The notes: a model not told the origin generated them from the sequence alone. DNA of 64,000 nt from Deltaproteobacteria bacterium (GCA_018333535.1 JAGXTA010000046.1:20551-84550); one strand, 5' to 3'. Positions 5,078-22,170 are shown, counted from the first letter of the stretch. Made by a program: numbers and translations.

Positions 5078-6256
5078 CTAAAGATCGAATTTGGGTAACT
5101 GCTGAAGGACATATTTCCGAATGACCTGAGGAGTGGGCAAGTCCTGAACGACCCTTTTATTCTGAATCAGAGGGAGAAGAAGCTCCTGAAAACGCCCTCC
5201 GCATGAACATCGATTTAACCCCTTGGCGGGGAATCTCCCTCTTGGCCGAAGAGGAACCACCCTGTCCTGAAGACATTTGGAGCATCGGAGGACGCTCTTC
5301 GAACCGGACAGCTTTCCCCTCTTCGCTAATGGCTTTCCTTCGATTTCGACGATGTCCATCGCCAGGTCGACGGACCTCGCGTTGGTAATGGAAGTTCCCA
5401 CTCCATAGGCATCCACCACAGGATTCAGGCTTAAGATACGTTTCTCGTCTAATCCCCCACTGACAAATATCTTCACATGACCAAATCCCCTGAGGTTGAG
5501 CTCCCAGCGGATCTCTTCAATAATCTTCCGGAAGTCTCCCCGCCTTGAACTGGGAGTATCGAGTCTGACGGCATAAAGCTTCTTCCCCAGGGCTTCTGCC
5601 ACACGGATGGCCTCTATCTTTTCATCATTGAAGGTATCGATCAGGGAAACCCGCTTTACCTTGGGATCGATCACCTCGTCAAAGGCTTTGGTCGCTTCCA
5701 CTGTATCGCCGATGAGCAGGACCAGGGCATGGGGCATGGTTCCGGAGGGCTCCTCATGGATCATCTCGGCATCCTTGACAACGGCAACACCGTCACATCC
5801 GCCGATAAAAGCATTCCGTTCCACCATTGGCGCAATCGCCGGATGGATTCGTCTCGCCCCGAAACTGATGACCCTCCGGTCTTCCGCCGCCTTTTTACAG
5901 CGGGCTGCCTTGGTGGCTACGCCGGAAGCCTGGCAGAGGAGACCCAGGATCGATGTCTCGAAGAGACCGAATTCCGTATACATCCCTTCGATCTCCATAA
6001 CCGGCTCGTAGGCCCGAAAGATCGTCCCCTCTTTCATGGCCCTCACTTTGACGGGGAGGTCTTTGAGGAGATAGACCGCCTCTTCAATCCCAGCCAGCAC
6101 GGCCCATCCGTATTCCTCAGGAAACCGTTTGGCGATGAATTCAGCCTTGACCCGTTTGTCAATCTTCTTTGCCTTGAGGATCTCCATCGTCCTCGTAAAA
6201 TAGACATCCGTATACTTGCCGGCCTTGATATCCTTTGGATCAGCGATATGAAACAT
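5078..6256 (-). CDS. Nicotinate phosphoribosyltransferase with a C-terminal zinc-ribbon extension
   Basis: The N-terminal MFHIADPKDIKAGKYTDVYFTRT...LKDLPVKVRAMKEGT matches the NAPRTase family. The C-terminal CSKC...CSCG ribbon is an extension. Confidence 0.8.
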   Translation of the reverse strand: MFHIADPKDIKAGKYTDVYFTRTMEILKAKKIDKRVKAEFIAKRFPEEYGWAVLAGIEEAVYLLKDLPVKVRAMKEGTIFRAYEPVMEIEGMYTEFGLFETSILGLLCQASGVATKAARCKKAAEDRRVISFGARRIHPAIAPMVERNAFIGGCDGVAVVKDAEMIHEEPSGTMPHALVLLIGDTVEATKAFDEVIDPKVKRVSLIDTFNDEKIEAIRVAEALGKKLYAVRLDTPSSRRGDFRKIIEEIRWELNLRGFGHVKIFVSGGLDEKRILSLNPVVDAYGVGTSITNARSVDLAMDIVEIEGKPLAKRGKLSGSKSVLRCSKCLQDRVVPLRPRGRFPAKGLNRCSCGGRFQELLLPLIQNKRVVQDLPTPQVIRKYVLQQLPKFDL

Positions 6257-6404
6257 CGTTAATTCTCTATTAATGGAATTAGAATTCCAATCTATATAAC
6301 AGAAATTTCTCGCCCCTGTCTATAAAAATATTCGGCTCCCCTTTTACAATCCCTCCGTCATAGGGATCATTTCATTTCATTGATAGGTGAAGTCGATAGG
6401 CGGG

Positions 6405-6440
6405 ACAGGAATGACCCGCCTATCGGGTGTAATTTATTTT
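6405..6440. other. Perfect 9-bp stem hairpin (ATAGGCGGG...CCCGCCTAT) between two minus-strand genes
   Basis: Seen directly in the sequence. On the plus strand it is followed by a T-rich tract. Confidence 0.4.
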
Positions 6441-6486
6441 ATCAGGAATTTCGTAACCCCCGTAACCACGGACTTGCCATAGTTTC

Positions 6487-8178
6487 TCAAGATCTTTCCC
6501 CGTGCAAAATCTTTCTCTCCCCTTTTCGTATGGGGATCAGAACGGCCGCCGCACAAAGCCCAAGAACCATCGCAAACGAAACAACAATCCACGCCCATTG
6601 AAATGAGGTTAGGCTTTCCTTGCGGACACCTGACATAAAAAGGCTGTAGACAGGGCCTGCTTCGAGAACCACCACCGCCGCAATAAAGCTCATGCAGAGC
6701 GACATATAGATCAACCCCCCCAGGCTGGTTACCGATTGAGTCGGGCTTTCAGGCTTAAAATCAGGGTAGATGGCGCCCAGTCCTATTCCCATCGCCACAA
6801 TCCCGGGAACCATCAAAAAGACCGTAACCACCGAAAGGACCATCATAAAAGGCGTCACATTCAGGAGAATATTGGTGGAAACGATCAATATTTCGGAGAG
6901 AAGAAGAAGGGGAATGAAATAGACAAAGAACTTAATCCAGAGGAAAGTGCGGATCGATAAAGGGGATGATCTCACGATCCAGAAGGCCTCTCCTTCGAGA
7001 CTCACTGCGGGGAAGACAAATCTCACCGCGATGGCGCTCAGGACAAAGGCGGCTAACCCCATATTTAAAAAAGAAAGGAGGTTTTGAAGATAGTCCAGCC
7101 GTAGGGCGCTTCTCTCAAGAGGAAGGACGGAAAAATTGTAGAGGTAGATCACGATCAATCCCATGACCAGAAAGATTTGAGACCACTGGGTCTGGTCGCG
7201 GAAGAAGGTCTTAATCTCCTTTTCGACAAAACCTCTCATGGGCCGGGGAAGATGATTAAGAAGCAAGTCGTATCCGATCCTTCTCCCACCGATAAACGAA
7301 AACATCTTTCCGGCAGAGGTCTGCGACTTTGAAAAACCCTTGAAATAAAAAGCCCCTGATATCCATGTCGAAATAAAAATCAGGCTGAGGGCGCCGCTCC
7401 AGGCGAGGGCCGTATGGAAGAGAGCGCTTTTCCAGGAACCTGAAAGGCTTGCTTTTAATGTGTCGGAGAACCAGGTGGTGGGTAGGATCGGAGAGCTGAG
7501 AGACTCGAGGGTCCTAAGATAGAGGATGAGAGAGGTGAACGATTCCGGATTGACCAATTTCTCCGGTCTGATCAATCGAAAAGAAAGAATTAAAAGGAGA
7601 GCCAGCAAAAGGCCCAGAAAGACAAAGACACTTCGAATTCGTCCTGCTGGCAGAACAATGGCGGCGATCATGACGATGATCGCGCTGAGACTCGAGGCAA
7701 TGAGACAGAAGGGCAGGAGATTGAGGCCTACCATCGCATAATAGAACCCCCCTGCCCTGTAAACGATGGCATAGGAAAGGAAAACAGGAAGGCTGTAGAT
7801 GAGCACCATCCATGAACTGTCGAGAGTCGATTCCATCCAGCGGGCAAGGAACAGCTTCTCCCTGGATACGGGCATCGAATGAACAAGGAAGAGGTCCTTC
7901 GCCAGATAAAGTTTGGCAAGGGAGGTCAGGATGGCGCTGAAGATGAGGAGGGAAAAGAAGGTAATCAGTGTCATGGAGAGAAGTTTGTAAGCAAGAACAT
8001 CACCAAAGCCTTCTATGCTTTGAAAATAGGTGAGAACCCGGTAAAAGAGAACAAACATCCCTCCCCAGAGCGAAAGGCCAATGGCGCCGAAGATCAGCCC
8101 CCGGAGTCTCCGGCTCGACGCCCCCCGGTTTTTAAAAGACAGAAGTCTGGGCCTCAGAAGGATTAGGACTTCTCTCAT
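6487..8178 (-). CDS. ABC transporter permease (large polytopic membrane protein, ABC-2-like exporter component)
   Basis: 563 aa with at least 10 hydrophobic segments. Its stop overlaps the start of the upstream ABC ATPase. Confidence 0.65.
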   Translation of the reverse strand: MREVLILLRPRLLSFKNRGASSRRLRGLIFGAIGLSLWGGMFVLFYRVLTYFQSIEGFGDVLAYKLLSMTLITFFSLLIFSAILTSLAKLYLAKDLFLVHSMPVSREKLFLARWMESTLDSSWMVLIYSLPVFLSYAIVYRAGGFYYAMVGLNLLPFCLIASSLSAIIVMIAAIVLPAGRIRSVFVFLGLLLALLLILSFRLIRPEKLVNPESFTSLILYLRTLESLSSPILPTTWFSDTLKASLSGSWKSALFHTALAWSGALSLIFISTWISGAFYFKGFSKSQTSAGKMFSFIGGRRIGYDLLLNHLPRPMRGFVEKEIKTFFRDQTQWSQIFLVMGLIVIYLYNFSVLPLERSALRLDYLQNLLSFLNMGLAAFVLSAIAVRFVFPAVSLEGEAFWIVRSSPLSIRTFLWIKFFVYFIPLLLLSEILIVSTNILLNVTPFMMVLSVVTVFLMVPGIVAMGIGLGAIYPDFKPESPTQSVTSLGGLIYMSLCMSFIAAVVVLEAGPVYSLFMSGVRKESLTSFQWAWIVVSFAMVLGLCAAAVLIPIRKGERKILHGERS

Positions 8179-10476: not shown

Positions 10477-10577
10477 CAAAACACACGCGACCCATTTAAC
10501 CAAAGGCTTCGCCTAAAGGCGAGGGTTTTTCTCCCATTCCCCGAATGGGAGAAAAAATATTCCTGAAGAAGTTGAAT

Positions 10578-11435
10578 ATGAAAACATACGGTCTCTTTCT
10601 GCTGGCCCTTTTCTTTACACTCTTACCCTCCCAACAGGGACATGCTTCATCTCCCGGCAAACTCCTCCTCTTTGCAGGAGCGGCAAGCAAGCCTGCGACA
10701 GAAGAGGTGATCAAAACTTTCCGGGAGAAATTTAAAATACCGGTCGATGTAATCTTTGGAGGTTCGGGGTTTGTCCTTTCTCAGATGAAATTATCCAGAA
10801 GGGGGGATATCTATTTCCCGGGTTCATCCGACTTCATGGAAGTGGCAAAAAGAGAGGGGCTCGTCTATCCTGAATCCGAAAAAATCGTTGTCTATCTCGT
10901 CCCTGCCATCAATGTTCAAAAGGGAAACCCAAAGAGGATCTCTTCCCTCAAGGATTTAACGAAGAAGAGAATCCGTTTAGCCATCGCCAACCCGGAGATG
11001 GTCTGCGTAGGGACTTATGCGGTGGAAATTATCGAGAGAAACCTGAATTCACAGGAGAAGGAGAGTCTCAGGAGAAATCTAGTTAATTACACGGAAAGCT
11101 GTGAAAAAACCGCCAATGTCATCTCTCTGAGGGCGGTCGATGCGGTGATTGGCTGGCGGGTATTCCAGTATTGGGACCCGGAACGGATTGAAACGGTCTT
11201 CTTGAAACCCGAAGAAATTCCAAGAATCGGCTACATTCCCATCGCTATCTCCAGGTTTACTCAGGACAAGGTCTTGGCTCAAACGTTTGTCGATTTTATA
11301 CTCTCGCCACAGGGAAAATCCATCTTTCAGAGGTATAACTACATAATGGACCTCCAGGAGGCGCGCCGATTTACAAAACCAGATACCCCTGTGGGAGGAG
11401 AATATATTCTGCCAAAGGAATGGAGAACAAGGTAA
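10578..11435 (+). CDS. Molybdate/tungstate ABC transporter substrate-binding protein (ModA/WtpA-like)
   Basis: Signal peptide MKTYGLFLLALFF. A periplasmic binding fold follows an oxyanion-binding-like GGSG segment (ModA-like). Followed by permease and ATPase genes. An alternative start at 10545 lies inside a hairpin. Confidence 0.75.
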   Translation: MKTYGLFLLALFFTLLPSQQGHASSPGKLLLFAGAASKPATEEVIKTFREKFKIPVDVIFGGSGFVLSQMKLSRRGDIYFPGSSDFMEVAKREGLVYPESEKIVVYLVPAINVQKGNPKRISSLKDLTKKRIRLAIANPEMVCVGTYAVEIIERNLNSQEKESLRRNLVNYTESCEKTANVISLRAVDAVIGWRVFQYWDPERIETVFLKPEEIPRIGYIPIAISRFTQDKVLAQTFVDFILSPQGKSIFQRYNYIMDLQEARRFTKPDTPVGGEYILPKEWRTR

Positions 11436-11644: not shown

Positions 11645-12421
11645 ATGGGCTTCAGGTACACCATGATTGGCGCTGCCATATGTATCTTCATCTTCTACTT
11701 TGGCCTTCTTGCCTCGCTCCTCTTCTCGGCAAGCCTGAAGGGTTTCTGGGAATCCCTGTTGCATCCTTCCACCCTCTTCTCCATTCGGCTGAGCCTCATC
11801 GCCGCCACCCTCGCCACACTTTTAGCTGTGGCTATCGGTCTCCCGTCAGCCTATGCCCTCTCCCGCTTCCAATTCAGAGGAAAGCAAATCGTGGATACGT
11901 TTCTCGAAATTCCGATCATCATGTCGCCCATTGCCCTGGGCGCCTCATTCCTCGTCTTCTTTAATACTCCCTTGGGGGAAGCCATCCAGAGAAAAGGAAT
12001 CTTCTTCGTATTTGAATTTCCCGGCATCATCCTTGCTCAATTCGCCACCATTGCAGGTCTGGCAACCCGGCTGATGAAAGCCTCCCTTGATGAAATCTCT
12101 CCACGATATGAAGCCGTGGCCCGCTCTCTCGGCTCCTCCTCATGGCAGGCCTTTTATCGTGTTACACTTCCCCTCTCCTTCCGGGGGCTTTTAGCTGCGA
12201 TCATCCTCTCCTGGGCGAAGGCCGCAGGCGAGTTCGGCGCCACCGTGACTCTTGCAGGCGCCATGCCAGGAAAAACCGAGACCATGCCCATTGCCATCTT
12301 TACGGCTCTGGCTTCAGCCAACATAGAAAAGGCGATTGTTTTGATTCTCATCCTCGTCTTCCTTGGTTTGGTCGCACTCTACGCTGTCCGATTTACCGGA
12401 AAGATCTATCGTTATGATTAA
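11645..12421 (+). CDS. Molybdate/tungstate ABC transporter permease (ModB-like)
   Basis: Six TM segments and the EAA-like loop ...SWAKAAGEFGATVTLAG typical of ModB/CysTW permeases. RBS AAGGAGG lies upstream. Confidence 0.85.
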   Translation: MGFRYTMIGAAICIFIFYFGLLASLLFSASLKGFWESLLHPSTLFSIRLSLIAATLATLLAVAIGLPSAYALSRFQFRGKQIVDTFLEIPIIMSPIALGASFLVFFNTPLGEAIQRKGIFFVFEFPGIILAQFATIAGLATRLMKASLDEISPRYEAVARSLGSSSWQAFYRVTLPLSFRGLLAAIILSWAKAAGEFGATVTLAGAMPGKTETMPIAIFTALASANIEKAIVLILILVFLGLVALYAVRFTGKIYRYD

Positions 12422-12499
12422 GGGATCTTCTCCCAGTCGAGTGGGTAAAAACCTCATGCAGATATGGCTATTTATTATCCCCCTTTGGAAAAGGGCAAA

Positions 12500-12540
12500 C
12501 ACTAACATTCCCCCCCTTTGGCAAAGGGGGGCGAGGGGGG
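12500..12540. repeat. Palindromic hairpin CCCCCCCTTTGGCAAAGGGGGGCGAGGGGGG
   Basis: Perfect palindrome. A related copy lies at 12672-12712 (CCCCCTCTTTGCCAAAGAGGGGG) and another at 50985-51025. Confidence 0.5.
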
Positions 12541-12751
12541 ATTTTAAGAACAAATGCTTTCTTACGATAAACAGTTGAAAATATTTTCCCAGCATCTCAG
12601 AAAAAATATTACAGAGATGTCTTTGAGAATATGGGCGGAGTGATGGAAGGGATATGGAGTTGCTTATGATTTACAAAATCTCCCCTGCCCCCTCTTTGCC
12701 AAAGAGGGGGAGAGAAAAACCAGATATGACCCACTCGATAGGGAAAAGATT

Positions 12752-13846
12752 ATGATTAAGATTGAGGGGCTTACCATCCTTCTCGGTTCTTTTCGTTTAA
12801 AGGATTTCCACATTGAAATTGCGGAGGGAGAGTTTCACTTTCTCCTCGGTCCCACGGGTAGCGGGAAAACCCTGATCCTGGAGTCGATTATCGGACTGCA
12901 TAAACCCAAAAAAGGAAAGATATGGATTGGCGAAAAGGAGGTTCAAAACCTGCCTCCTGAGCGGAGGGAGATTTCTTATGTTCCTCAAGACCTGGCTCTC
13001 TTCCCGCATCTAAGTGTGAAGGAGAATATCCTTTATGGAATTAGGGCAAAAAATCACTCCTTAAAAACCTATGAGGAATATGTCGGGTCTCTCATTCAGG
13101 TCATGAAAGTTGGACATCTTCTCGAACGATACCCGGCCAATCTTAGCGGAGGGGAGAAGAAACGGGTGGCGCTTCTCAGAGCGCTGGCTCCAAAGCCAAA
13201 ACTCCTTTTGCTTGACGAGCCCCTCTCCGGTCTGGACCCCTCCATCAAATTTGAAATTCAGCAACTCTTAAAAACCCTCCACGCCTCTTTTCATCCAACG
13301 GTTTTATGTGTTTCCCATGACTTCGAGGAAGCCTACCTCCTGGGAGATAAGATGACCATTTTCATTGATGGAAAAGTGGAGCAGGTCGGAAAAAGAGACG
13401 ATGTTTTTTTAAAACCCAGATCCCAAAAGGTGGCACAATTTCTGGGGTTAAAGAATCTTTACAGGGGCAAAGTCCTGACAAAGGGGGAGGCCGATCAACG
13501 ATGGGTTCTCGACATCAACGGTCTCCGATTTTCCGTACCGGGCAGTGCCTGTCAGGATCAGATGGAGATAGGAAAAGAGGTGGACATCTACATCCGACCT
13601 GAAGAGGTGATGATCCTCCGTGAAGGGAAGTCTGTCAAAGAATCTCTGAAGAAGAATATCTTCGAGGGGAAAATTTCGGATATTGCCAATAGAGGCAGAC
13701 ACCATACCGTGGCATTCCAGGATGAAGAAAGACGGATCTTTTTCGAAATCTCCATTCCCAATTACGCCTTCCGGAATCTCGATCTGTCGATTGGTAAAAC
13801 CACAAAGGTCGCCCTCCGCGACGAATCCCTCTGGGTGATGGAATAA
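12752..13846 (+). CDS. Molybdate/tungstate ABC transporter ATP-binding protein with a C-terminal TOBE-like domain (ModC-like)
   Basis: Walker A GPTGSGKT, signature LSGGEKKRVAL and Walker B LLLDEP. The roughly 130-aa C-terminal extension is typical of ModC. Confidence 0.85.
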   Translation: MIKIEGLTILLGSFRLKDFHIEIAEGEFHFLLGPTGSGKTLILESIIGLHKPKKGKIWIGEKEVQNLPPERREISYVPQDLALFPHLSVKENILYGIRAKNHSLKTYEEYVGSLIQVMKVGHLLERYPANLSGGEKKRVALLRALAPKPKLLLLDEPLSGLDPSIKFEIQQLLKTLHASFHPTVLCVSHDFEEAYLLGDKMTIFIDGKVEQVGKRDDVFLKPRSQKVAQFLGLKNLYRGKVLTKGEADQRWVLDINGLRFSVPGSACQDQMEIGKEVDIYIRPEEVMILREGKSVKESLKKNIFEGKISDIANRGRHHTVAFQDEERRIFFEISIPNYAFRNLDLSIGKTTKVALRDESLWVME

Positions 13847-13878
13847 TTTAAGAGGATGCTGAAAAAGCCAACCGCCAT

Positions 13879-13947
13879 GTCACTCCCGCGAAAGCGGGAG
13901 TCCAGAAGACCTTTGAAAAACTGGATTCCTGCTTCCGCAGGAATGAC
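13879..13947. repeat. Structured inverted-repeat module IR-a (outer stem GTCAC.../...GTGAC enclosing two hairpins)
   Basis: The hairpins are TCCCGCgaaaGCGGGA and TCCTGCttccGCAGGA, within the outer stem GTCACTCC...GGAATGAC. Confidence 0.55.
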
Positions 13948-14077
13948 CTTCTTCAGCCAGAATGGACTTTTTCAGCAACCTCCTAATAAAACCTCCTAAT
14001 AAATCTTGACGAAGCCGTAGTTTTATGAGATGTTTACAGCACAATGATAGTTGGCACAAACCAAAGGAGAAACTGCG

Positions 14078-14521
14078 ATGGGCGCCCGTGACGAATTCGC
14101 AACCAAAGATGATTTAGAAAAATCCTTAGGAAAATTTAAAGAAGAGATTATCCATGAATTTCATATTGTTGCTGAGGGACTGACTGACCATATGAAACTT
14201 CTGGCTGAAGGCCATTCAGGTTTAGCCCAAAGACTTGACCGGGTGGAAACAAGGCTTGGCGGAGTAGAGATCAGACTTGATCGAACAGAAGCAGGTCAGT
14301 TGGGAATCGTTCAACGACTTGATCATATGGAAACAAGGTTTGACCATATGGAAACAAGGTTTGACCATATGGAAGCAGAAAACGTACGTCAGCACATGGA
14401 AACTCGCTCACTCATTAAACTCTCCTTTTCCGAACTGGACAACCGACTCTCCAGTCTGGAGTTACAGGTCAAAGAACTGCAAGAATGGAGAAAACAGGTC
14501 CAGGATAGGCTTCAAATTTAA
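14078..14521 (+). CDS. Hypothetical coiled-coil protein with tandem heptapeptide-like repeats (RLDHMETRFDHMETRFDHMEAE)
   Basis: RBS AAAGGAG lies 7 nt upstream of ATG 14078. Heptad-like charged repeats. Contains a 21-bp tandem DNA repeat. Confidence 0.5.
   Translation: MGARDEFATKDDLEKSLGKFKEEIIHEFHIVAEGLTDHMKLLAEGHSGLAQRLDRVETRLGGVEIRLDRTEAGQLGIVQRLDHMETRFDHMETRFDHMEAENVRQHMETRSLIKLSFSELDNRLSSLELQVKELQEWRKQVQDRLQI
14321..14383 (+). repeat. Tandem 21-bp repeat x3 (GACCATATGGAAACAAGGTTT) inside the coiled-coil ORF
   Basis: Seen directly in the sequence. The third unit is degenerate. Confidence 0.8.
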
Positions 14522-14805
14522 CATTCCTCTTTTAAACCATTATATCTATCCATCATTATCTTTTCCCTACCCATCAGAAAATACAACCCCTTATTTGCAT
14601 AGAAAATAGCTTCCTTAAATCCCTCCCCGCCTCCCTTTGCCCTCCAGTTCAGAGACCGCTCTGGGTCGGAGACCAAAGGGAGGTGTAATTATCCCCCTTT
14701 GCAAAACTGATCCTTACCCATAACCTGGGTTGCTGGACACAAGGGTTAAGTTGAATATTGTTAACAGGTCGATATCATTATTAATTTTTAAGTTTGTCAT
14801 TCCTG

Positions 14806-14864
14806 CGGAAGCAGGAATCCAGATGTTTCTGTTGGTCCTGGATTCCCGTTTTCACGGGAATGAC
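14806..14864. repeat. Structured inverted-repeat module IR-b (reverse complement of IR-a)
   Basis: The hairpins are TTCCTGCggaaGCAGGAA and TTCCCGttttcACGGGAA, within the outer stem GTCATTCC...GGAATGAC. Confidence 0.55.
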
Positions 14865-15311
14865 ACCTAAATACAGAATGCAAAACCTTCAATTACACCG
14901 GTCATGCCCCCCTTCCTTGTGTTCAGCCCCCCGACTTATGGGACACGGTTAGTTTGCAAAAGGGGGACTGAGGGGGATTTTCATGGTTCGTGCCTGTCCC
15001 GTATAAACGGGAGGTGTCGCTCCGTCATGAAGGATTGCTCTGAAATAAATCCCTCTGGGTGATGAGCTAACTTAAAATCAGAGGAAGTTTGCTACGATTT
15101 TCATGGTTTTTGGTAACCAATTGTACGTGGTCAATTTCCATGATTTTTCAGAATTATTCCCTAAGATTTCTTCCTGAATTATTCAGTTCCTTAATTTCTA
15201 AAAAAGGTGTATATTACAACCCATAAGCAGCGGAATGGTATTTTCTTCATAACAAGATAATTTTCATTTATTGATTTAAAAAATTCCTATTTGGTCATTG
15301 GAGAGCCTGGA

Positions 15312-15608
15312 GTGAAAAAATTATTGGGTTCACTACTTGGCATATTGGTTTTGATTGCAGGATTATACCTTGAATTTTTTGGGATTTATCATTCATTTAG
15401 CAGGCACGGTGTAAAGGATGGGTTAATATCTGTTTTTATTCCACCTTACGGATGGTACCGAGCAATTGAATATTGGTGGCATGATGATTATGCTGGTATA
15501 GAGACCATGAACCCAGTGTGGGAGGCTTTGGGCCCGACAACGATGGTGGATGGAGAAGAAAGGTACTCGGGGGATTCTTTTTTGATAGAAAGAGTATGGA
15601 GAGAATAG
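15312..15608 (+). CDS. Hypothetical small membrane protein
   Basis: GTG start preceded by GGAGAG. One long hydrophobic segment LLGSLLGILVLIAGLYLEFFGI. AT-rich island context. Confidence 0.3.
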   Translation: MKKLLGSLLGILVLIAGLYLEFFGIYHSFSRHGVKDGLISVFIPPYGWYRAIEYWWHDDYAGIETMNPVWEALGPTTMVDGEERYSGDSFLIERVWRE

Positions 15609-15862
15609 AAGGGAAGATCAAATTGTGGGTGAGGATCAAAATACATAATCCAATGGTTCGACGGGAAGGAAAAGAAACTTTTAGATGTGATGAAATCATC
15701 CTAAAATGGATTGTCGATTGTGAAACGAAGGAAGTAAAAACAGATTATATTGTGCTCTATTGGCAGGCGAAGAAACAGTATAGTAAAAAGAAAGATGATT
15801 TGAAGTGGCCTATAATGAAGAACACAAATGCTTATCTGATATACGAATTATTTTGTTTTTAG
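15596..15862 (+). CDS. Hypothetical protein
   Basis: ORF in the AT-rich island, taken from the internal ATG (MERIEGKIKLW...). No recognisable domain. Confidence 0.25.
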   Translation: MERIEGKIKLWVRIKIHNPMVRREGKETFRCDEIILKWIVDCETKEVKTDYIVLYWQAKKQYSKKKDDLKWPIMKNTNAYLIYELFCF

Positions 15863-16626
15863 TGATGAAAGGAGGTAAACTGATAAACTATTTTCAGGTC
15901 GATGGCCGAAGAGAGTAAGATTTGGGGTCTGAATTGACTTCAAGAGGAATGGGTAGCGCTTAACAAATCAGCGGATGGTTTACAAACACCGCTGAATTAA
16001 GTCTTCGGACGGAAGAGATAATGAAAGAAGATGATTACAAACTGACTAAGGCTCAAGGAACCGATTAAGAAGCAGAAAGGACGATGCGCTCTTTCTGGAG
16101 CCGAGATGATTTTTGAGAAGGAATACGGAAATCCAAATATTAACACCAGCGGGTGTCACCCGCTCTATGTGACTATCGACCATATCTCCCCAAATAATGA
16201 TAAATATGGGCACCAGCTTGTGTGCTATGATCTGAACGATCTATTACTCTGGCCAGAATAATGGTAACGTTTTATTCTGAGATAGCTTGCCCACTTCTGA
16301 CCGTATTTTATTGGCCAAAAGCACAATTTCAAAGACATTTTTGGAAGTACCCTTGATCTGTGTGCTCTATGATAAGGATGTTACCTAAATTCAGGCCAAG
16401 GTAGTAAAAGGCTGTCTTCCAAACAAAATTTTCAAGGAACTCCAGGTCACGGAAGCATGGCGACAACTGATGAACGAGTGGCGGTCGCTTGCTAAAAAAA
16501 GACCCTATGGACATAGAGGCGTTCAAGAAGGTGCTTGGAGACTAAAGGTTATTCCAACAGGCGGCTACCTGATCGCCGATAGATCCGGTTTCCAGTGAGC
16601 CGCAATAAACTCATTCGAGGTGATGT

Positions 16627-17337
16627 GTGGTTTTTAATGTAGGATTTTGGGACAGATTTATTCGGGATCAATTAATGCACCAAATAACTATTTTCGTTGA
16701 AAATATAGAGGGACGTCTTCTTCCAACATTTCATGATATAGAAAGTGAGGCTGAAAAAGTTCAAGAGCAGGAATGGAATAGATTGTGTTCCTCGTGTTCC
16801 TCCCCAGATATCGATCTTGCTGATTTAGCGGAGAAAGCCCGTGATGCTGGGATCGATTACTATATGATGGTTTCCGGCGTTAAACAATCCCTTTTGAATG
16901 TTTCGGCAACGAGCTTGTATCACCTTTTTGAGCAACAACTCTTATTTTTTTTACGCCGTGAAATCCTTCATCAATCTGAAGAAAATAATATTGATCTAAT
17001 AAAGATATCTATTTTAAAAGAGCGATGTCTCCAACACAACATCGACGTTGAGATATTTTCATCTTGGCAGACAATAAATGAAATGAGGCTTGTGGCTAAC
17101 ACCGTAAAGCATGCTGAAGGTAAATCTGCCATTGATCTTCGTAAAATCAGACCGGACCTCTTCAGAAATCCTGTCCTGGAAAAATTTGGTCCTAAACTTG
17201 GTGGTAACTTTCGTTGTTTGTATATGCCACTCGCAGGTGAAGATTTGTACCTATCAATTGAGGATCTGAAAAAATACGGTAGAGCTATTACAAGGTTCTG
17301 GGACGAAATGATTTCTGCTATGTACGAACGAAACTGA
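16627..17337 (+). CDS. Hypothetical protein (236 aa, no recognisable domain) in the accessory island
   Basis: Long ORF in an AT-rich region. Confidence 0.45.
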   Translation: MVFNVGFWDRFIRDQLMHQITIFVENIEGRLLPTFHDIESEAEKVQEQEWNRLCSSCSSPDIDLADLAEKARDAGIDYYMMVSGVKQSLLNVSATSLYHLFEQQLLFFLRREILHQSEENNIDLIKISILKERCLQHNIDVEIFSSWQTINEMRLVANTVKHAEGKSAIDLRKIRPDLFRNPVLEKFGPKLGGNFRCLYMPLAGEDLYLSIEDLKKYGRAITRFWDEMISAMYERN

Positions 17338-17479
17338 CTGAAATGCCTCACCTAAAGAATTATTCCAGCGGATGGATTACAGTCACTGCTGTTTTTAGCT
17401 GTTAATGTCCGCTTTCAAAGCGTAATCCTCATCCTCAAGGATCACACTCGGAACAACATTTGTAGGTGCTATAGGCACT

Positions 17480-17704
17480 CTGAAAACTGGAAAGTATAAA
17501 ATAGAGCTTCTGTTAACCCCGTTTGAAGGCCCCAGCATTCCTGCCTGTCGGCAGACAGGTATGCTTGAGGATGGTAGAAATAGAAAGCATCCCTGCCTGT
17601 CGGCAGACAGGAGCTCCTCATTTAGTGTGGGGTTAAACCCCTGCCTCTTCTAACGGGGTTTACTCGCCCTCCATCTGAATCTCAATCTTTTTGGGTTTCT
17701 CGCA
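17480..17704. repeat. Direct repeat DR1 (about 225 bp). It contains two CCTGCCTGTCGGCAGACAGG palindromes and a copy of the last 15 codons of mobB.
   Basis: Near-identical to 18428-18650. The end of the repeat encodes ...CEKPKKIEIQMEGE*, compared with ...IEIQIEGE* for authentic mobB. Confidence 0.75.
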
Positions 17705-17747
17705 ATGGGAGGAAGAATCTGTTGAGAAGAAATAGGTTTAACAACTC

Positions 17748-17778
17748 TTGACAATGATATCAGTAATGGTACTATAAT
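17748..17778 (+). promoter_or_regulatory. Near-consensus sigma-70 promoter upstream of hicA
   Basis: TTGACA, then a 17-19 nt spacer, then a -10 element that is either ACTATA (17-nt spacer) or TATAAT (19-nt spacer), ending about 5 nt before the hicA GTG start. Confidence 0.45.
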
Positions 17779-17781
17779 AAT

Positions 17782-18042
17782 GTGGCTAAAATAGATGATA
17801 TACTTGCACAAATTAAGCAAAATCCAAGAGATGTTCGATTCAGTGATTTGTGCAAGGTATGTAATCATTTTTTTGGGGAGCCTCGCCAAAGTGGGAGCAG
17901 TCATCGAATTTACAAAACCCCGTGGCAGGGTGATCCTCGAATAAATATCCAGAACCATAAAGGAAAGGCCAAGGCATATCAGGTGAAGCAGGTGCTATTG
18001 GCAATTGACAGATTGGAGGTAAGTCATGGCCCTGAAAAATGA
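17782..18042 (+). CDS. hicA: HicA-family toxin (mRNA interferase)
   Basis: Small basic protein with the ...SGSSHRIYKTPWQGDPRINIQNHKGK... motif typical of the HicA/YcfA fold. Overlaps the downstream hicB. Confidence 0.75.
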   Translation: MAKIDDILAQIKQNPRDVRFSDLCKVCNHFFGEPRQSGSSHRIYKTPWQGDPRINIQNHKGKAKAYQVKQVLLAIDRLEVSHGPEK

Positions 18043-18355
18043 TCGATATACCTATCGGGTAACCTGGTCTGAAGATGATAACGAGTATGTGGGTTTGTGC
18101 GCTGAATTTCCCAGCTTGAGTTGGCTGGCTAAGACTCCAGGTATAGCCTTAAAAGGAATCCGTAAATTAGTTGAAGATGTCGTGAAGGATATGCATAACG
18201 CAGGTGAAGCTGTTCCTGATCCAATCGCTTGCAGGCATTACAGTGGAAAATTCATAGTGCGGGTTCCTCCACAAGTTCATCGAAAACTCGCAATCCAAGC
18301 AGCCGAGTCTGGAGTCAGCCTGAACCGTCTTGCCAGTTCAAAGTTAAGTCAATAA
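18026..18355 (+). CDS. hicB: HicB-family antitoxin
   Basis: N-terminal HicB fold (YRVTWSEDDNEYVGLCAEFPSL). C-terminal RHH-like DNA-binding tail (VHRKLAIQAAESGVSLNRL). Confidence 0.75.
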   Translation: MALKNDRYTYRVTWSEDDNEYVGLCAEFPSLSWLAKTPGIALKGIRKLVEDVVKDMHNAGEAVPDPIACRHYSGKFIVRVPPQVHRKLAIQAAESGVSLNRLASSKLSQ

Positions 18356-18427
18356 AGCTCTGCGCCTATCATAACCTTCAATTCCTGAACATGGTTGCAG
18401 TAATGACTTGGAGGTGAAATACGCAAA

Positions 18428-18650
18428 CTGAAAACTGGAAAGCATAAAATAGATATCATGTTTACCCCGTTAGAAAGCCTCAGCATTCCTGCCTGTCGGC
18501 AGACAGGTATGCTGAGGATGGTAGAAATAGAAAGCATCCCTGCCTGCGGCAGGCAGGAGCTCCTTATTTAGGGCGAGGTCAAACCCCTGCCCTTTCTGAC
18601 GGGGTTTACTCGCCCTCAATCTGAATCTCAATCTTTTTGGGTTTCTCGCA
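18428..18650. repeat. Direct repeat DR2 (about 223 bp) overlapping the authentic 3' end of mobB
   Basis: See DR1. Together the repeats bracket the hicAB cassette. Confidence 0.75.
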
Positions 18651-19256
18651 TCCCTTCAATGAACGGACCATTCCCTTAATCGACCCTAACAGGAAATCTC
18701 TGATAAAAGGTTTTAACGGAACGGCCCTGTCATCTACCCTTAGAGTGATTTGTTCTTCCTTTTTTGACTTTAAAAACTTCTTTTCGATAAAATCACCCAC
18801 TCCTTTGACATCATCAAGAAAGAAGCAGGAGACCCCGACATTGAACTCCTTGTCCGATACAATGGCGATGAGGTTATCCTCTTTGGTGCAGAGAAGCTCC
18901 TTGTGCTTTTCCGTTCTGAAGATTTCGATCTTCGGTTGGACATCCTTTTTGTAGCCCTCTGAAAGAATAAGGTCTACATCCTGAACCAACTTGTCCCGGA
19001 TTTCATCCAACCGTAAATCCTTCTCCACATCCCGGATCAGCGCCACTTTGGCAGGAGAGGAGATGATCGTTGTATGGGCGCCTGCCTGCTTATGCCGCCA
19101 GCTATCCTTCCCCTCCCGGTCCACCTCAAACCCGTGAACATCGTGCTTCACGGTTGCGATCCGGTAACCCCTGCGGACTAGCTCAGGCAAAAGTTTCTCG
19201 ATAAATGTGGTCTTTCCGCTATCTGACTTACCAACAATAGAAATGATGGGAATCAC
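18606..19256 (-). CDS. mobB: Molybdopterin-guanine dinucleotide biosynthesis adapter protein MobB
   Basis: IVGKSDSGKTTFIEKL...VKH Walker-A region. Probable GTG start with RBS AAAGGAG 6 nt upstream. The ORF track extends a further 25 codons upstream. Confidence 0.85.
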   Translation of the reverse strand: MIPIISIVGKSDSGKTTFIEKLLPELVRRGYRIATVKHDVHGFEVDREGKDSWRHKQAGAHTTIISSPAKVALIRDVEKDLRLDEIRDKLVQDVDLILSEGYKKDVQPKIEIFRTEKHKELLCTKEDNLIAIVSDKEFNVGVSCFFLDDVKGVGDFIEKKFLKSKKEEQITLRVDDRAVPLKPFIRDFLLGSIKGMVRSLKGCEKPKKIEIQIEGE

Positions 19257-19262
19257 GCTAAA

Positions 19263-19375
19263 CTCCTTTGGAATATTGGAATGTTGGAACAATGGAATAA
19301 TGGGGAAGGCTGAGAAGATTCTTTTCGACACAACATTCCATCATTCCATAATTCCATTCTTCCATGATCAAAAGT
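19263..19375. promoter_or_regulatory. Array of inverted TGGAAT/ATTCCA repeats between moeA and mobB
   Basis: GGAATATTGGAATGTTGGAACAATGGAATAATGG faces CATTCCATCATTCCATAATTCCATTCTTCC. This is either a long imperfect hairpin or an array of protein-binding sites. Confidence 0.45.
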
Positions 19376-20582
19376 TTCGTTCCAGCAATTGCACCTTCAC
19401 TTTCTCCCCTGCCCTGACAATCTCTTGGCTTTCGGGGATGACGATAAGGCCATTGGCCCTGACCATGGATCTCAATATCCCTGACCCCTGTGGACCTGTC
19501 GTTGTCACCGAATAGCCGTCGTTTTCAAATGAGACCATGGCCCGGATAAAATGTTTTTTCCCCGGCTCTTTACGAATTTCCTCCTTTAGAACAGCCTCGA
19601 TAACAGGCTGAAAGATTTGCCGATGGCCCATCATCTTCAAGAGCGATGGCCTTACAAACTGTTCAAAGGTGATCATGGAGGAAACAGGGTTTCCCGGAAG
19701 GCTGAAGGCTGGCTTCTTATCAAACATCCAGAAAGCCACGGGTTTCCCTGGTTTCATTGCGACTCTCCAGAATATCATCTCCACGCCCAGTTCCTTCAGG
19801 ACATCCCTGACGAAATCATAATCCCCTACGGAGACACCCGCTGACGAAATAAAAACATCAGACCGAAGCCCCTGAAGAATCTTCTTTTTAATCTCATCTT
19901 TTTGGTCTTTCGCAATTCCCAATTGAATCGGGATCGCTCCGCACTCCCTGACCTGGGCGGCCAATGTGTAGGAATTGCTGGAGACAATCTTCACCCCATC
20001 CAGGCTCTCACCCACATCCACCAGTTCCTCACCAGTACAGAGGACCGCCACTGATGGCCTTTGATAAACCGAGACGAATGACCTTCCCATAGAGGCAAGC
20101 ATCCCGATTTCTGATGGACGGATGATATCCCCTTTGGTGATCACCCGATCTCCCCTCTTTACATCCTCCCCTGCCCTTCGGATGTACCCACCGGGAAAAC
20201 CAGCCTTCAGAATGATGACAAAACCGTTTCCCCTTTCCGTCTCCTCAACAGGCACAACCGCATCAGCGCCTTTTGGGATGGGGGCGCCGGTCATAATTCT
20301 TATGGCCTGACCCTTTTGGACTGTTTTTTCCGAAATGAATCCAGCGCGAAGATCTTCAATCACTTCTAAGCGGACAGGATTCTTTTCAGAAGCATCCGGA
20401 ATATCTTCATACCTGACCGCATAACCGTCCATCCCCGAATTATCATAAGGGGGAAGATCACGAGGGGCAATCATATCCTCCGCAATCACCCGGCCCAGGG
20501 CATCCAGAATGGATACCTTCTCAAACCCCATGGGCTGGATGTGAGAAAGGGTTTTATCTAAGGCTTCTTCTACGGTGATCAT
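19368..20582 (-). CDS. moeA: Molybdopterin molybdotransferase MoeA
   Basis: 404 aa. MoeA N-terminal and MoCF-biosynthesis domains. SGMDGYAV motif. Confidence 0.9.
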   Translation of the reverse strand: MITVEEALDKTLSHIQPMGFEKVSILDALGRVIAEDMIAPRDLPPYDNSGMDGYAVRYEDIPDASEKNPVRLEVIEDLRAGFISEKTVQKGQAIRIMTGAPIPKGADAVVPVEETERGNGFVIILKAGFPGGYIRRAGEDVKRGDRVITKGDIIRPSEIGMLASMGRSFVSVYQRPSVAVLCTGEELVDVGESLDGVKIVSSNSYTLAAQVRECGAIPIQLGIAKDQKDEIKKKILQGLRSDVFISSAGVSVGDYDFVRDVLKELGVEMIFWRVAMKPGKPVAFWMFDKKPAFSLPGNPVSSMITFEQFVRPSLLKMMGHRQIFQPVIEAVLKEEIRKEPGKKHFIRAMVSFENDGYSVTTTGPQGSGILRSMVRANGLIVIPESQEIVRAGEKVKVQLLERNF

Positions 20583-20750: not shown

Positions 20751-21227
20751 ATGGCAAGGCCAAGACATTGCAGGCGAGTAGAGTGTATTCCTGGAAGCAG
20801 ATACTTTAAACCCAGAGGTATCCCTCTTTCTTCATTAGAGGAAGTCATTTTAACTGTTGATGAATTCGAGGCTATCAGACTGGCTGACCTTGAGGGTTTA
20901 TATCAGGAGCAGGCAGCAGAAAAGATGAACATTTCTCGCCAAACCTTTGGAAGGATTATCGAATCAGCACATCAAAAGGTGGCCGATGCGTTGGTTCAGG
21001 GGAAGGCATTAAAGATTGAAGGAGGTGAGTTTGAAATGGCAGAGAGGAGAAAGTTTAAATGTTATGACTGCCAACACACCTTGGAACTTCCTTACGGAAC
21101 GGGTAGACCGGAGAATTGTCCTTCCTGCAAAAGTGGCAACATTCGCAGAGCAGAAGAAGACAGGGGGAGTGCAAGAGGTTTTGGCAATAGGCAAAAGAGG
21201 GATTGTTTTCGATCTCAGGCAAAATAG
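20751..21227 (+). CDS. DUF134 (UPF0251) family predicted DNA-binding protein with a C-terminal zinc ribbon
   Basis: Hallmark N-terminus MARPRHCRRV. The C-terminus has CYDCQ...CPSCKSG. Confidence 0.8.
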   Translation: MARPRHCRRVECIPGSRYFKPRGIPLSSLEEVILTVDEFEAIRLADLEGLYQEQAAEKMNISRQTFGRIIESAHQKVADALVQGKALKIEGGEFEMAERRKFKCYDCQHTLELPYGTGRPENCPSCKSGNIRRAEEDRGSARGFGNRQKRDCFRSQAK

Positions 21228-21292
21228 CAATGAAGAAAACATTATCGAAGCGTGACAAAATAAATGGACACCCAATAAGAAAGGAGAAAATC

Positions 21293-21532
21293 ATGAAAGT
21301 AGGTTTTGCAGTTCAGACGAACGAAGGAATGGAAAGCAGGGTTTATGATCATTTTGGCTCGGCCCCGGCATTCATCATTGTCGATACCGAAGGGAAAGAG
21401 GTCTTAACAATTAATAATAAGGACTTGCACCATCTTCACGGCGCATGCAATCCAATCATGGCGCTTGATGGGAAGAGCGTCGATGCAATGGTCGTGGGTG
21501 GCATAGGAGCAGGCGCATTGACGAAGTCAGAC
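21293..21532 (+). pseudogene. NifX/NafY-like (dinitrogenase FeMo-cofactor biosynthesis domain) gene, N-terminal fragment interrupted by an IS200/IS605 insertion
   Basis: RBS AAGGAGA. MKVGFAVQTNEG...HFGSAPAFIIVD...MVVGGIGAGAL matches the intact paralogs at 25201 and 25587. The sequence after GAGALTK diverges into IS-end hairpins. Confidence 0.7.
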
Positions 21533-22170
21533 ACCCCCCGCAAAGCGGGTGGCTTGATGAGCGGGGCTGCCTCAAAGGCAGTCGACCCGATAGCTAAACG
21601 TTGCGCTAAAGCGCACCTCAGTTGCCAAATTAAAAATGTTCTCCCGTTCCATCCGCTTCCTCTTGATCGCGGATGTATTGGCGAACTTGCTCTATCTGAA
21701 ATCCAACGGTGGATACCGCATATCCCCGAGCCCAAAGATGTTCCCCTGTGAAATTCCTCTCCTTGCCGCATAGCTGCCTTGAGATCGCAATCGCACTCTT
21801 CCCTTTCAAAAAACCGATCACAGAAGCAACCGCATACTTTGGGGGAATCGCAATACACACATGAACATGATCGGGCATCAGATGACCTTCCAGAATTTGG
21901 CATTCTTTCTGCCGAGCCAAGGCATGAAATATTTCACCTAGGTGGCGTCGTGCCTGCCCAAACAGGGCTCTCCGTCTCTTCTTTGGGATAAACACCACAT
22001 GGTATTTGCAATCCCATTTCGAATGAGATAAGCTTCGATAACCCTGAAAACTTTCTTCCATAACATCCTCCTGTGCCGTTTGCTTTTCTCATCAAGCCAC
22101 GGGAGGATGTTATGCTCAACGGTCAAACCTTTTCAAGTCGCACTGGTAAAACCAGTGGCTTACCTAAATT
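21533..22170. mobile_element. IS200/IS605-family insertion sequence (TnpA only)
   Basis: Contains the HuH Y1 transposase ORF. Subterminal hairpins CCCGCaaaGCGGG, CTGCCtcaaaGGCAG and TGCGCtaaaGCGCA lie at one end, and CACTGGtaaaaCCAGTG at the other. The element splits the NifX-like gene. Confidence 0.8.
21630..22061 (-). CDS. tnpA: IS200/IS605 family transposase TnpA (HuH Y1)
   Basis: 143 aa with SKWDCKYHVVFIPKKRR and the HVHVCIAIPPKY HuH motif. Confidence 0.9.
   Translation of the reverse strand: MEESFQGYRSLSHSKWDCKYHVVFIPKKRRRALFGQARRHLGEIFHALARQKECQILEGHLMPDHVHVCIAIPPKYAVASVIGFLKGKSAIAISRQLCGKERNFTGEHLWARGYAVSTVGFQIEQVRQYIRDQEEADGTGEHF

Follow-up and report, generated by a model that had tools for sequence, protein, structure and literature searches.

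The concept of the chromosomal hotspot, or defence island, was reportedly set out by Oliveira et al. in 2017 and Makarova et al. in 2011. Here we describe a 4759-bp island, bounded by the convergent genes modC and mobB at positions 13847-18605 of a 64,000-nucleotide stretch of DNA from a Deltaproteobacteria bacterium (GCA_018333535.1, JAGXTA010000046.1:20551-84550), a stretch that we call the window. The island holds a coiled-coil gene (cc156), two small orphan open reading frames (ORFs; tm105 and adh114), a pseudogene of a 136-amino-acid family (p136), a gene for a 236-amino-acid protein (p236) and a hicAB toxin-antitoxin (TA) pair. It resembles chromosomal accessory and defence hotspots in that a fixed slot between core genes receives lineage-specific cargo (TA pairs, a GNAT gene, an HNH-headed protein, the coiled-coil gene), and in that its composition is deviant and it has no dedicated mobility gene. 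It differs from them in being tiny (4.8 kb) and mainly debris, with no defence system that PADLOC recognises, and its slot, unlike that of typical hotspots, is the overlapping-stop junction of two convergent genes with one metabolic theme.

The closest description of how such a slot may be filled comes from type VI secretion system (T6SS) and Rhs arrays, where orphan immunity genes and orphaned 3' ends were found and homology-facilitated illegitimate recombination (HFIR) was proposed (PMC5361080); the recombination process itself is described in PMC3240628. As in those arrays, successive insertions anchored in a flanking gene appear to have left 3' remnants in the island, one of modC at 15048-15075 and one of mobB at 17660-17704. 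What sets the island apart from those arrays is that both convergent flanks have contributed remnants, that its cargo is not of the effector-immunity kind, and that the mechanism is read from sequence only.

A scan for MobB with one genome per species yielded 80 loci, all from metagenome-assembled genomes labelled Syntrophaceae, Syntrophorhabdus, Thermodesulfobacteriota or Deltaproteobacteria. The order moeA-mobB, convergent with modC-modB-modA, is kept in the loci having both genes, and mobB and modC are convergent neighbours in 18 Syntrophaceae/Syntrophorhabdus-like relatives. The original prediction held that the flanking molybdenum genes are contiguous elsewhere, and this was borne out: in 7/18 (L013, L032, L010, L008, L014, L041, L024) the stop codons overlap or lie no more than 52 bp apart (stop-to-stop gap -4 to 52 bp) with no cargo between them. 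Gaps of 133 and 240 bp (L006, L011) are likewise without cargo, and gaps of 405-619 bp (L007, L009, L002, L003) hold a cc156 homolog only. The longer gaps hold a GNAT-like ORF (804 bp, L020), content that was not identified (921 bp, L027), a PIN-like and ribbon-helix-helix (RHH)-like pair (1107 bp, L004), a 470-amino-acid protein (2039 bp, L012), and a 511-amino-acid protein with a canonical HNH N-terminus plus a major facilitator superfamily (MFS) transporter (3351 bp, L033). The domain names given to this cargo were read from motifs by eye and are not profile matches, and the gap of L005 was left out because of a run of N at the junction.

The modC genes of the seven compact-gap relatives are 64-74% identical to that of the window, and no homolog of tm105, adh114, p236, hicA or hicB was found in the 80 relative loci. 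The compact gaps together with this absence show that the arrangement with compact or overlapping stops is ancestral. Relatives sharing the intervening genes had been named as the observation that would tell against an accessory island; cc156, in the left 0.7 kb, is such a shared gene, while tm105, adh114, p236 and hicAB are absent from all 80 loci. The site has been filled independently by unrelated cargo, with the largest known filling in the window. Non-homologous cargo at the same site across lineages points to a recombination and insertion hotspot in the Syntrophaceae/Syntrophorhabdus-like lineage rather than one integrative element. The core genes are adjacent in relatives, the cargo is non-homologous between lineages and the composition is deviant, as expected of a hotspot; a site-specific integrative element would have an integrase match and repeats that enclose it, but no integrase was matched and the repeats span sub-parts only.

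The protein of 470-511 amino acids, whose function is unknown, recurs at the hotspot (L033 5321-6856, L012 3216-4628, L039 about 5356-6339). Its N-terminus in L033 reads CxxC…DH…N…CxxC, and the MFS transporter adjoins it in L033 and L039. No trace of the L033/L012 protein or of the L004 TA pair was seen in the window's island.

The GC profile agrees with the AT-rich accessory island that was proposed between the molybdenum/tungsten-uptake and molybdenum cofactor genes. The island has a GC content of 0.420 against a window mean of 0.462, which puts it at the 1.4th percentile among same-size windows, and its core (15048-17459, GC 0.393) is the minimum of all 2.4-kb windows in the stretch. Over 19.4 kb, the assemblies JGI 3300001813 and ENA ERZ27300255 have the same sequence (100% identity), and a contig from a third run (L102) is 100% identical through the left junction as far as 14645.

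All ORFs of the island were scanned with PADLOC, NCBIfam, Pfam and PHROG, and these scans yielded only HicB, a weak HicA, a weak Adhesin_E, coiled-coil noise and phrog_19541 (function unknown). Pfam and NCBIfam scans of the ORFs in 13847-18605 showed no integrase, recombinase or transposase gene or fragment. A tRNA scan of the island found none, and an Rfam scan found no structured element, though Rfam holds no attC model. The island proteins had no significant match in PADLOC-DB v2.0.0, HicAB included; the sole match, of cc156 to DruC (E 0.0012, 15 bits), is marginal and was put down to a coiled-coil artefact.

On the left side, the original prediction saw an element bounded by target-site duplications, which would make 13852-15047 a transposon or miniature inverted-repeat element. 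The 28-nt repeat behind it is real (13824-13851 and 15048-15075, 24/28 matches), but it is better read otherwise. The window's modC ends in …WVME-stop, as it does in L002, L004, L006, L007 and L011, whereas the second copy ends in VMS-stop. The last modC codon is the variable one among relatives, and the modC of L020 ends VMS-stop, so the second copy would be a remnant of another lineage's modC end and not a target-site duplication. The 32-nt inverted repeat within 13852-15047 consists of two copies of one palindrome resembling repetitive extragenic palindromes (REPs). There is no transposase, and cc156 lies at the same site in four relatives without any flanking duplication, which argues that it is not a transposon but older cargo common to the nearest relatives. 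Together with its upstream region (from 13997), cc156 has 72-80% DNA identity to L002, L003, L007 and L009, and in all four its stop overlaps the mobB stop on the opposite strand (TTAA). Its only Pfam matches are sub-threshold coiled-coil ones.

Homology to L002, L003 and L007 stops exactly at the cc156 stop (14521) and restarts 12 nt inside mobB. The junction with foreign DNA directly after the cc156 stop is confirmed in the independent contig L102. Upstream of cc156, the modC terminator hairpin (arms 13848-13867 and 13967-13986) is divided by a 99-nt insert of two REP-like palindromes; in L002 a short hairpin follows modC uninterrupted, and in L007 and L009 modC runs straight into the cc156 promoter.

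Two side observations concern this part of the island. The cc156 gene holds 21-nt (heptad) tandem repeats at 14230-14377 (…RLDHMETRFDHMETRFDHMEAE…), and its homologs are shorter in L007 (118 amino acids) and L009 (111 amino acids), so that the repeat number appears to vary between lineages. GC-rich REP-like palindrome families (e.g. CCCCCTTTGGCAAAGGGGG, GTCATTCCTGCGGAAGCAGGAATC, CCTGCCTGTCGGCAGACAGG) occur in intergenic DNA at 12474-12711, 13868-13966, 14630-14967, 17540-17611, 18488-18558, 26964, 34876, 39230 and 50988, and the related contigs L001 and L102 terminate at REP-like repeats.

On the right side, the hicAB module predicted between direct repeats is intact and the repeats exist, but their length is about 245 bp and not 225. 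Copies A and B are direct and 89% identical, and each contains the last 15 mobB codons. Copy A ends the gene as …IEIQMEGE-stop and copy B as …CEKPKKIEIQIEGE-stop, one substitution in 15 codons; the remnant in copy A occupies 17660-17704 on the minus strand (CEKPKKIEIQMEGE-stop). Copy A joins the hicAB upstream region abruptly at 17704/17705. Collinearity of the relative contig L001 with copy B extends through mobB (343 nt, 86%), and its match to copy A covers 93 nt only (86%). Identity of mobB to L001-L003 is 77-84% over roughly the final 250 bp and up to 98% in the middle of the gene. MobB ends in …IED in L002, L003 and L007; in the window and L001 it ends in …IEGE and a terminator of its own comes after it (18606-18617 against L002 3797-3805); this difference in the tail suggests that an insertion rewrote the last mobB codons.

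These observations lead us to a reading that we consider probable, in which the modC/mobB junction is a hotspot filled in layers and the window has its largest filling. In the ancestral state, which relatives display, the modC and mobB stops overlapped or nearly touched. The first layer would be cc156, its stop overlapping that of mobB, a gene that relatives demonstrably share. The second would be the 2.66-kb AT-rich segment 15048-17704; being bounded by a modC end and a mobB end, it looks like the modC-to-mobB intergenic region of another lineage nested in this one. At its left edge it would retain 24-28 nt of the donor's modC end and at its right edge a terminator and 45 nt of a mobB end, and it would have brought the two orphan ORFs, the now-dead 136-amino-acid gene and the intact p236 module. 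The third layer would be hicAB together with a new mobB 3' end and its terminator (copy B); once it had arrived, copy A, the earlier mobB end, would have been left behind as a direct repeat. HFIR would explain each step most economically, with recombination anchored in the conserved flanking gene and an illegitimate join at the other end; the diverged 250 bp or so at the mobB 3' end and the EGE-stop tail common to the window and L001 are consistent with it. REP-like palindromes would have colonised the non-coding parts later. The order of the layers and the mechanism are a model.

Several points weigh against this reading. The second and third layers rest on two short remnants and parsimony, and no donor genome with modC(VMS-stop)-tm105...p236-mobB was found. 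The modC remnant is only about 24 nt long, and a 24/28 match would be expected by chance with an estimated probability of about 1e-3 within the 11 kb searched, although chance is made less likely by where it lies and by its in-frame stop. The layers could also have arrived in another order, as a mobB end and terminator of the window's type are already present in L001.

In a different history, a site-specific recombinase would have integrated one island, or several in tandem, at the 3' end of modC or mobB; the repeats would then be attL and attR, and the integrase would since have been lost. Direct repeats with gene 3' ends are typical of att sites, and a p236 module elsewhere (locus L081) adjoins an integrase, an HTH_17 excisionase-like gene and a tRNA. 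We nevertheless think this unlikely: no integrase or recombinase gene or fragment lies in 13847-18605, the 28-nt pair spans only cc156, which is repeat-free in relatives, and the 245-nt pair spans only hicAB. The repeats are also 86-90% identical rather than identical cores, and the unrelated cargo of relatives has no common att-like sequence. A degenerate integron-like cassette array without integrase, in which an attC-like hairpin follows each small gene, would fit the direct hairpins at 15969-16001 and 17366-17398 (79% identical) that bracket the p136 pseudogene and p236, and it would fit the cassette-typical content (TA pairs, small orphan ORFs) on a single strand. However, the hairpin occurs twice here and once in L081, and is not found at p136 loci or other p236 loci; there is no intI nearby, Rfam (which has no attC model) finds no structured element, and the hicAB repeats are flank duplications and not attC sites, all of which makes such an array a very improbable origin.

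That the region is itself ancestral and was deleted in relatives, the short gaps being derived, seems more improbable again. It would account for cc156 at the same place in four relatives, but not for compact or overlapping stops in seven relatives whose modC is 64-74% identical, for cargo that is non-homologous between lineages, for a core with the lowest GC of the window, or for tm105, adh114, p236 and hicAB in 0/80 relatives; the p236 module is moreover 90.7% identical to a copy in an unrelated context. We give least credence of all to an assembly chimera, a mis-join at REP-like repeats in a metagenome. The region is repeat-rich and contigs L001 and L102 do break at repeats, but two assemblies agree at 100% over 19.4 kb, the contig of a third run spans the left junction, and the 3' ends of the flanking genes are intact and in frame.

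Among the cargo of the island, the p236 gene stands out. The original prediction described a 236-amino-acid protein with no recognisable domain, and it has no match in Pfam, NCBIfam or PADLOC; it does match phrog_19541 (function unknown) over its full length at 5e-17. More than 200 homologs were found in an indexed search, and a profile search gave 1704 cluster representatives (50% identity, E<=1e-3); members of the family are nearly all 225-250 amino acids long and stand alone. Public gene calls begin at an internal ATG (16675, 220 amino acids). The first 16 residues, including W8, are conserved, which indicates that translation begins at the GTG at 16627 and that the 220-amino-acid version is truncated.

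The genomic surroundings of the family were sampled as 139 ORFs flanking 41 homolog loci. PADLOC identified GajA and GajB in 3/41; the Gabija loci were assigned to L088, L143 and L166 by size, Walker and UvrD motifs and mutual homology. By a rough estimate, three adjacencies among 41 are far above the expectation for a random gene. In one case a homolog of 52% identity precedes gajA-gajB by 45 nt, and BrnT is close by. N6_Mtase, ResIII, SNase, AAA_21 and Trypsin_2 are recurrent Pfam families among the 139 neighbours, and further neighbours include restriction-modification (RM), HigB, BrnT and integrase genes. On a Burkholderia vietnamiensis plasmid, the homolog has an integrase, an Abi-family protein and VapC as neighbours, and on a Nitrobacter hamburgensis plasmid a DUF6088 protein and an AbiEii-family toxin, the last two of which we read as an AbiEi/AbiEii-type pair. 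There is no conserved partner gene, and clustering of the 139 neighbours gave local synteny groups only. An 861-bp segment including p236 is 90.7% identical to the island of L081 (with its integrase and excisionase-like gene, beside the tRNA), and other homologs have only coding sequence in common. This suggests that mobile elements and defence islands carry p236 as cargo that stands alone.

In one other locus (L142), about 0.9 kb separates a p236 homolog (6001-6687) from a HicA homolog downstream of it (7564-7776) that is 37% identical to the HicA of the window; this proximity is probably a coincidence of TA-rich islands. An exact-protein look-up of a Dissulfuribacter homolog returned no record.

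In 65 aligned members of the family, D63, Q103, R110, N158, K161, H162, G165, G204, F224 and W225 are invariant and H99 and E102 nearly so; H99, E102, Q103, R110, N158, K161 and H162 form a conserved polar cluster. The structure model is confident and all-helical, with weak similarity to the HEPN fold. Examples of HEPN proteins are the MNT-HEPN toxins 7ae2_A and 5yep_B, and also Csm6/Csx1 and LsoA. Compared with HEPN toxins and RNases, p236 has no Rx4-6H motif and instead has its invariants as N158-x2-K161-H162 at a helix end, plus R110 and Q103. H162, which sits in that N158-x2-K161-H162 stretch, is the only invariant histidine, and no conserved arginine lies 4-6 residues upstream of it. Minimal HEPN toxins are half as long as this protein of 236 amino acids, which also lacks an MNT partner, and neither sequence profiles nor Foldseek support the resemblance. 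A Pfam scan of the 65 members gave no HEPN match, one member reaching E 0.29 only against HEPN_RiboL-PSP, and no DUF86-type HEPN ORF was found in the collected sequences. A sequence-profile search of the PDB with p236 found no match, the one match in BFVD is an uncharacterised prophage protein, and domain fusions among p236 relatives (P0102, P0122 and others) contain no informative domain.

Since its family is widespread and unannotated and recurs beside Gabija, Abi, RM and TA genes, it is reasonable to regard p236 as a candidate new defence or toxin gene. Our best guess, a tentative one, is that the protein has a single-protein defence or toxin function on an HEPN-like helical bundle. Put more specifically, and with more doubt than belief, the family might be a new single-gene anti-phage or Abi effector with a divergent HEPN-like bundle and an active site of N-x2-K-H plus Arg/Gln, whose 0.86-kb module would move among integrative islands, plasmids and chromosomal hotspots, often beside Gabija. 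Several results count against this effector reading: the lack of any PADLOC or Pfam model, the absence of the Rx4-6H motif from the 65 aligned members, a Foldseek search of the PDB that returned nothing, the absence of homologs from the INPHARED and IMG/VR phages, and a neighbourhood enrichment that was judged without a formal background. The suggestion of possible defence-related novelty in the island thus holds to the extent that p236, with its Gabija (3/41), AbiE, Abi/VapC, RM and integrase neighbours, is the best candidate, but PADLOC recognises no system.

The other cargo is more modest. The two overlapping small ORFs that had been predicted are present as tm105 and adh114, and a search of 5.8 billion proteins returned no homolog of adh114 except itself. 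The fragment taken for a possible HNH-nuclease remnant (the peptide YVTIDHISPNNDKYGHQLVCYDLNDL, at 16049-16243) does belong to a pseudogene, but the HNH assignment found no support in Pfam, PHROG or PDB even for the intact 136-amino-acid family. The pieces of the pseudogene, located by tblastn, are 16021-16056, 16049-16243, 16404-16505 and 16489-16542; residues 13-26 are deleted, a 160-bp insertion follows residue 91, and there are two frameshifts. Intact homologs (P0268-P0297) are hypothetical proteins of 134-139 amino acids, 74-83% identical over the retained parts. The fragment matched nothing in Pfam or PHROG, and the intact homologs nothing in Pfam (E<=5), PHROG or the PDB sequences. The AlphaFold2 model of the protein is poor (pLDDT, predicted local distance difference test, of 56) and uninformative on the fold. 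A C-x2-SG … DH … N-x2-K pattern seen by eye is the only resemblance to HNH that remains. Intact p136 is a solitary gene between AMP-binding enzyme and BKACE genes in L107-L111, which are Thermodesulfobacteriota metagenome contigs (e.g. L107 6001-6411), and it might stand on its own as a selfish or nuclease-like gene. Of the two similar hairpins that flank the p136 pseudogene and p236, and that may be terminators or cassette boundaries, the one at 17366-17398 is kept in L081 (7411-7436), and among the other p136 and p236 loci the 26-nt hairpin was found in L081 only.

In type II TA systems of the HicAB kind, the RNase HicA is restrained by HicB, whose C-terminus binds DNA. The window's pair is like these systems in its gene order (hicA before hicB), its overlap (17 nt), its above-threshold HicB domain and its identity to annotated HicA proteins: residues 1-80 of HicA are 62-70% identical (tblastn) to plasmid genes annotated 'toxin HicA'. 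It is unlike them in that HicA is under the Pfam gathering threshold and has no PDB relative by sequence. By analogy, the pair should act as a type II TA pair, stabilising the islet or aiding abortive defence. A promoter-like site, TTGACA-16-TACTAT with TG, lies at 17748-17775. Its -10-like hexamer ends 6 nt before the hicA GTG, with no Shine-Dalgarno sequence apparent; the transcript is leaderless, or else the true promoter lies elsewhere.

The modA-, modB- and modC-like genes of the left flank encode the binding protein, permease and ATPase of the molybdate/tungstate/sulfate ABC group. Their top NCBIfam matches are modA, modB and the tungstate model WtpC (the best model for ModC, as modA is for ModA), each under the equivalog cut-off, so the predicted substrate is left as molybdate or tungstate. 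About 1 kb past moeA and a DUF134 gene lies an IS200/IS605-type Y1 transposase gene (21630-22061, minus strand; PF01797 per the source annotation), which overlaps the 3' part of a Nitro_FeMo-Co-domain ORF (21203-21751, plus strand) and is a second sign of mobile DNA near the molybdenum cluster.

Features of the island and its flanking genes, in window coordinates.
Feature	Position	Strand	Remarks
modA-like gene	10545-11435	+	Pfam SBP_bac_11
modB-like gene	11645-12421	+	Pfam BPD_transp_1
modC-like gene	12752-13846	+	Pfam ABC_tran+TOBE_2
Native modC 3' end	13824-13851	+	…ESLWVME-stop; copy 1 of the 28-nt direct repeat
REP-like palindromic insert	13868-13966		Two hairpins; inverted repeat I15
cc156 upstream region and gene	13997-14521	+	Coding sequence 14051-14521; 156-amino-acid coiled-coil protein
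Non-coding REP-rich spacer	14522-15047		Inverted repeats I1, I6, I13
Putative foreign modC 3' end remnant	15048-15075	+	…SLWVMS-stop, in-frame stop; copy 2 of the 28-nt repeat
tm105	15291-15608	+	ORF for a predicted membrane protein of 105 amino acids
adh114	15518-15862	+	114-amino-acid ORF overlapping tm105; weak Adhesin_E PF16747, 1e-6, 29.4 bits
p136 pseudogene	16021-16542	+	136-amino-acid conserved hypothetical family
p236 module	16571-17431	+	Coding sequence 16627-17337, GTG start; 56 bp upstream; 3' hairpin 17366-17398
Repeat copy A	17460-17704		REP hairpins, terminator, 45-nt mobB 3' end remnant
hicA	17782-18042	+	GTG start; PF07927 0.003, 18.1 bits vs gathering threshold 27
hicB	18026-18355	+	PF05534 5.8e-15, 55.4 bits vs cut-off 21
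Repeat copy B	18408-18650		Functional mobB 3' end, terminator, REP hairpins
mobB	18606-19331	-	Pfam MobB PF03205 2.5e-49; synteny in relatives
moeA	19368-20582	-	MoeA_N, MoCF_biosynth, MoeA_C; synteny in relatives

Overall this is an island of an ordinary sort: its hotspot is small, and what fills it is a TA pair, orphan ORFs, a pseudogene and REP elements. Its nested modC and mobB 3' remnants are an unusually legible record of hotspot filling, layer by layer and free of integrase; the lineage is syntrophic and uncultured, and such processes have scarcely been described in it. Of some value too is that the island draws attention to the p236 family, a defence or toxin candidate that is widespread, lacks annotation and has a confident model.

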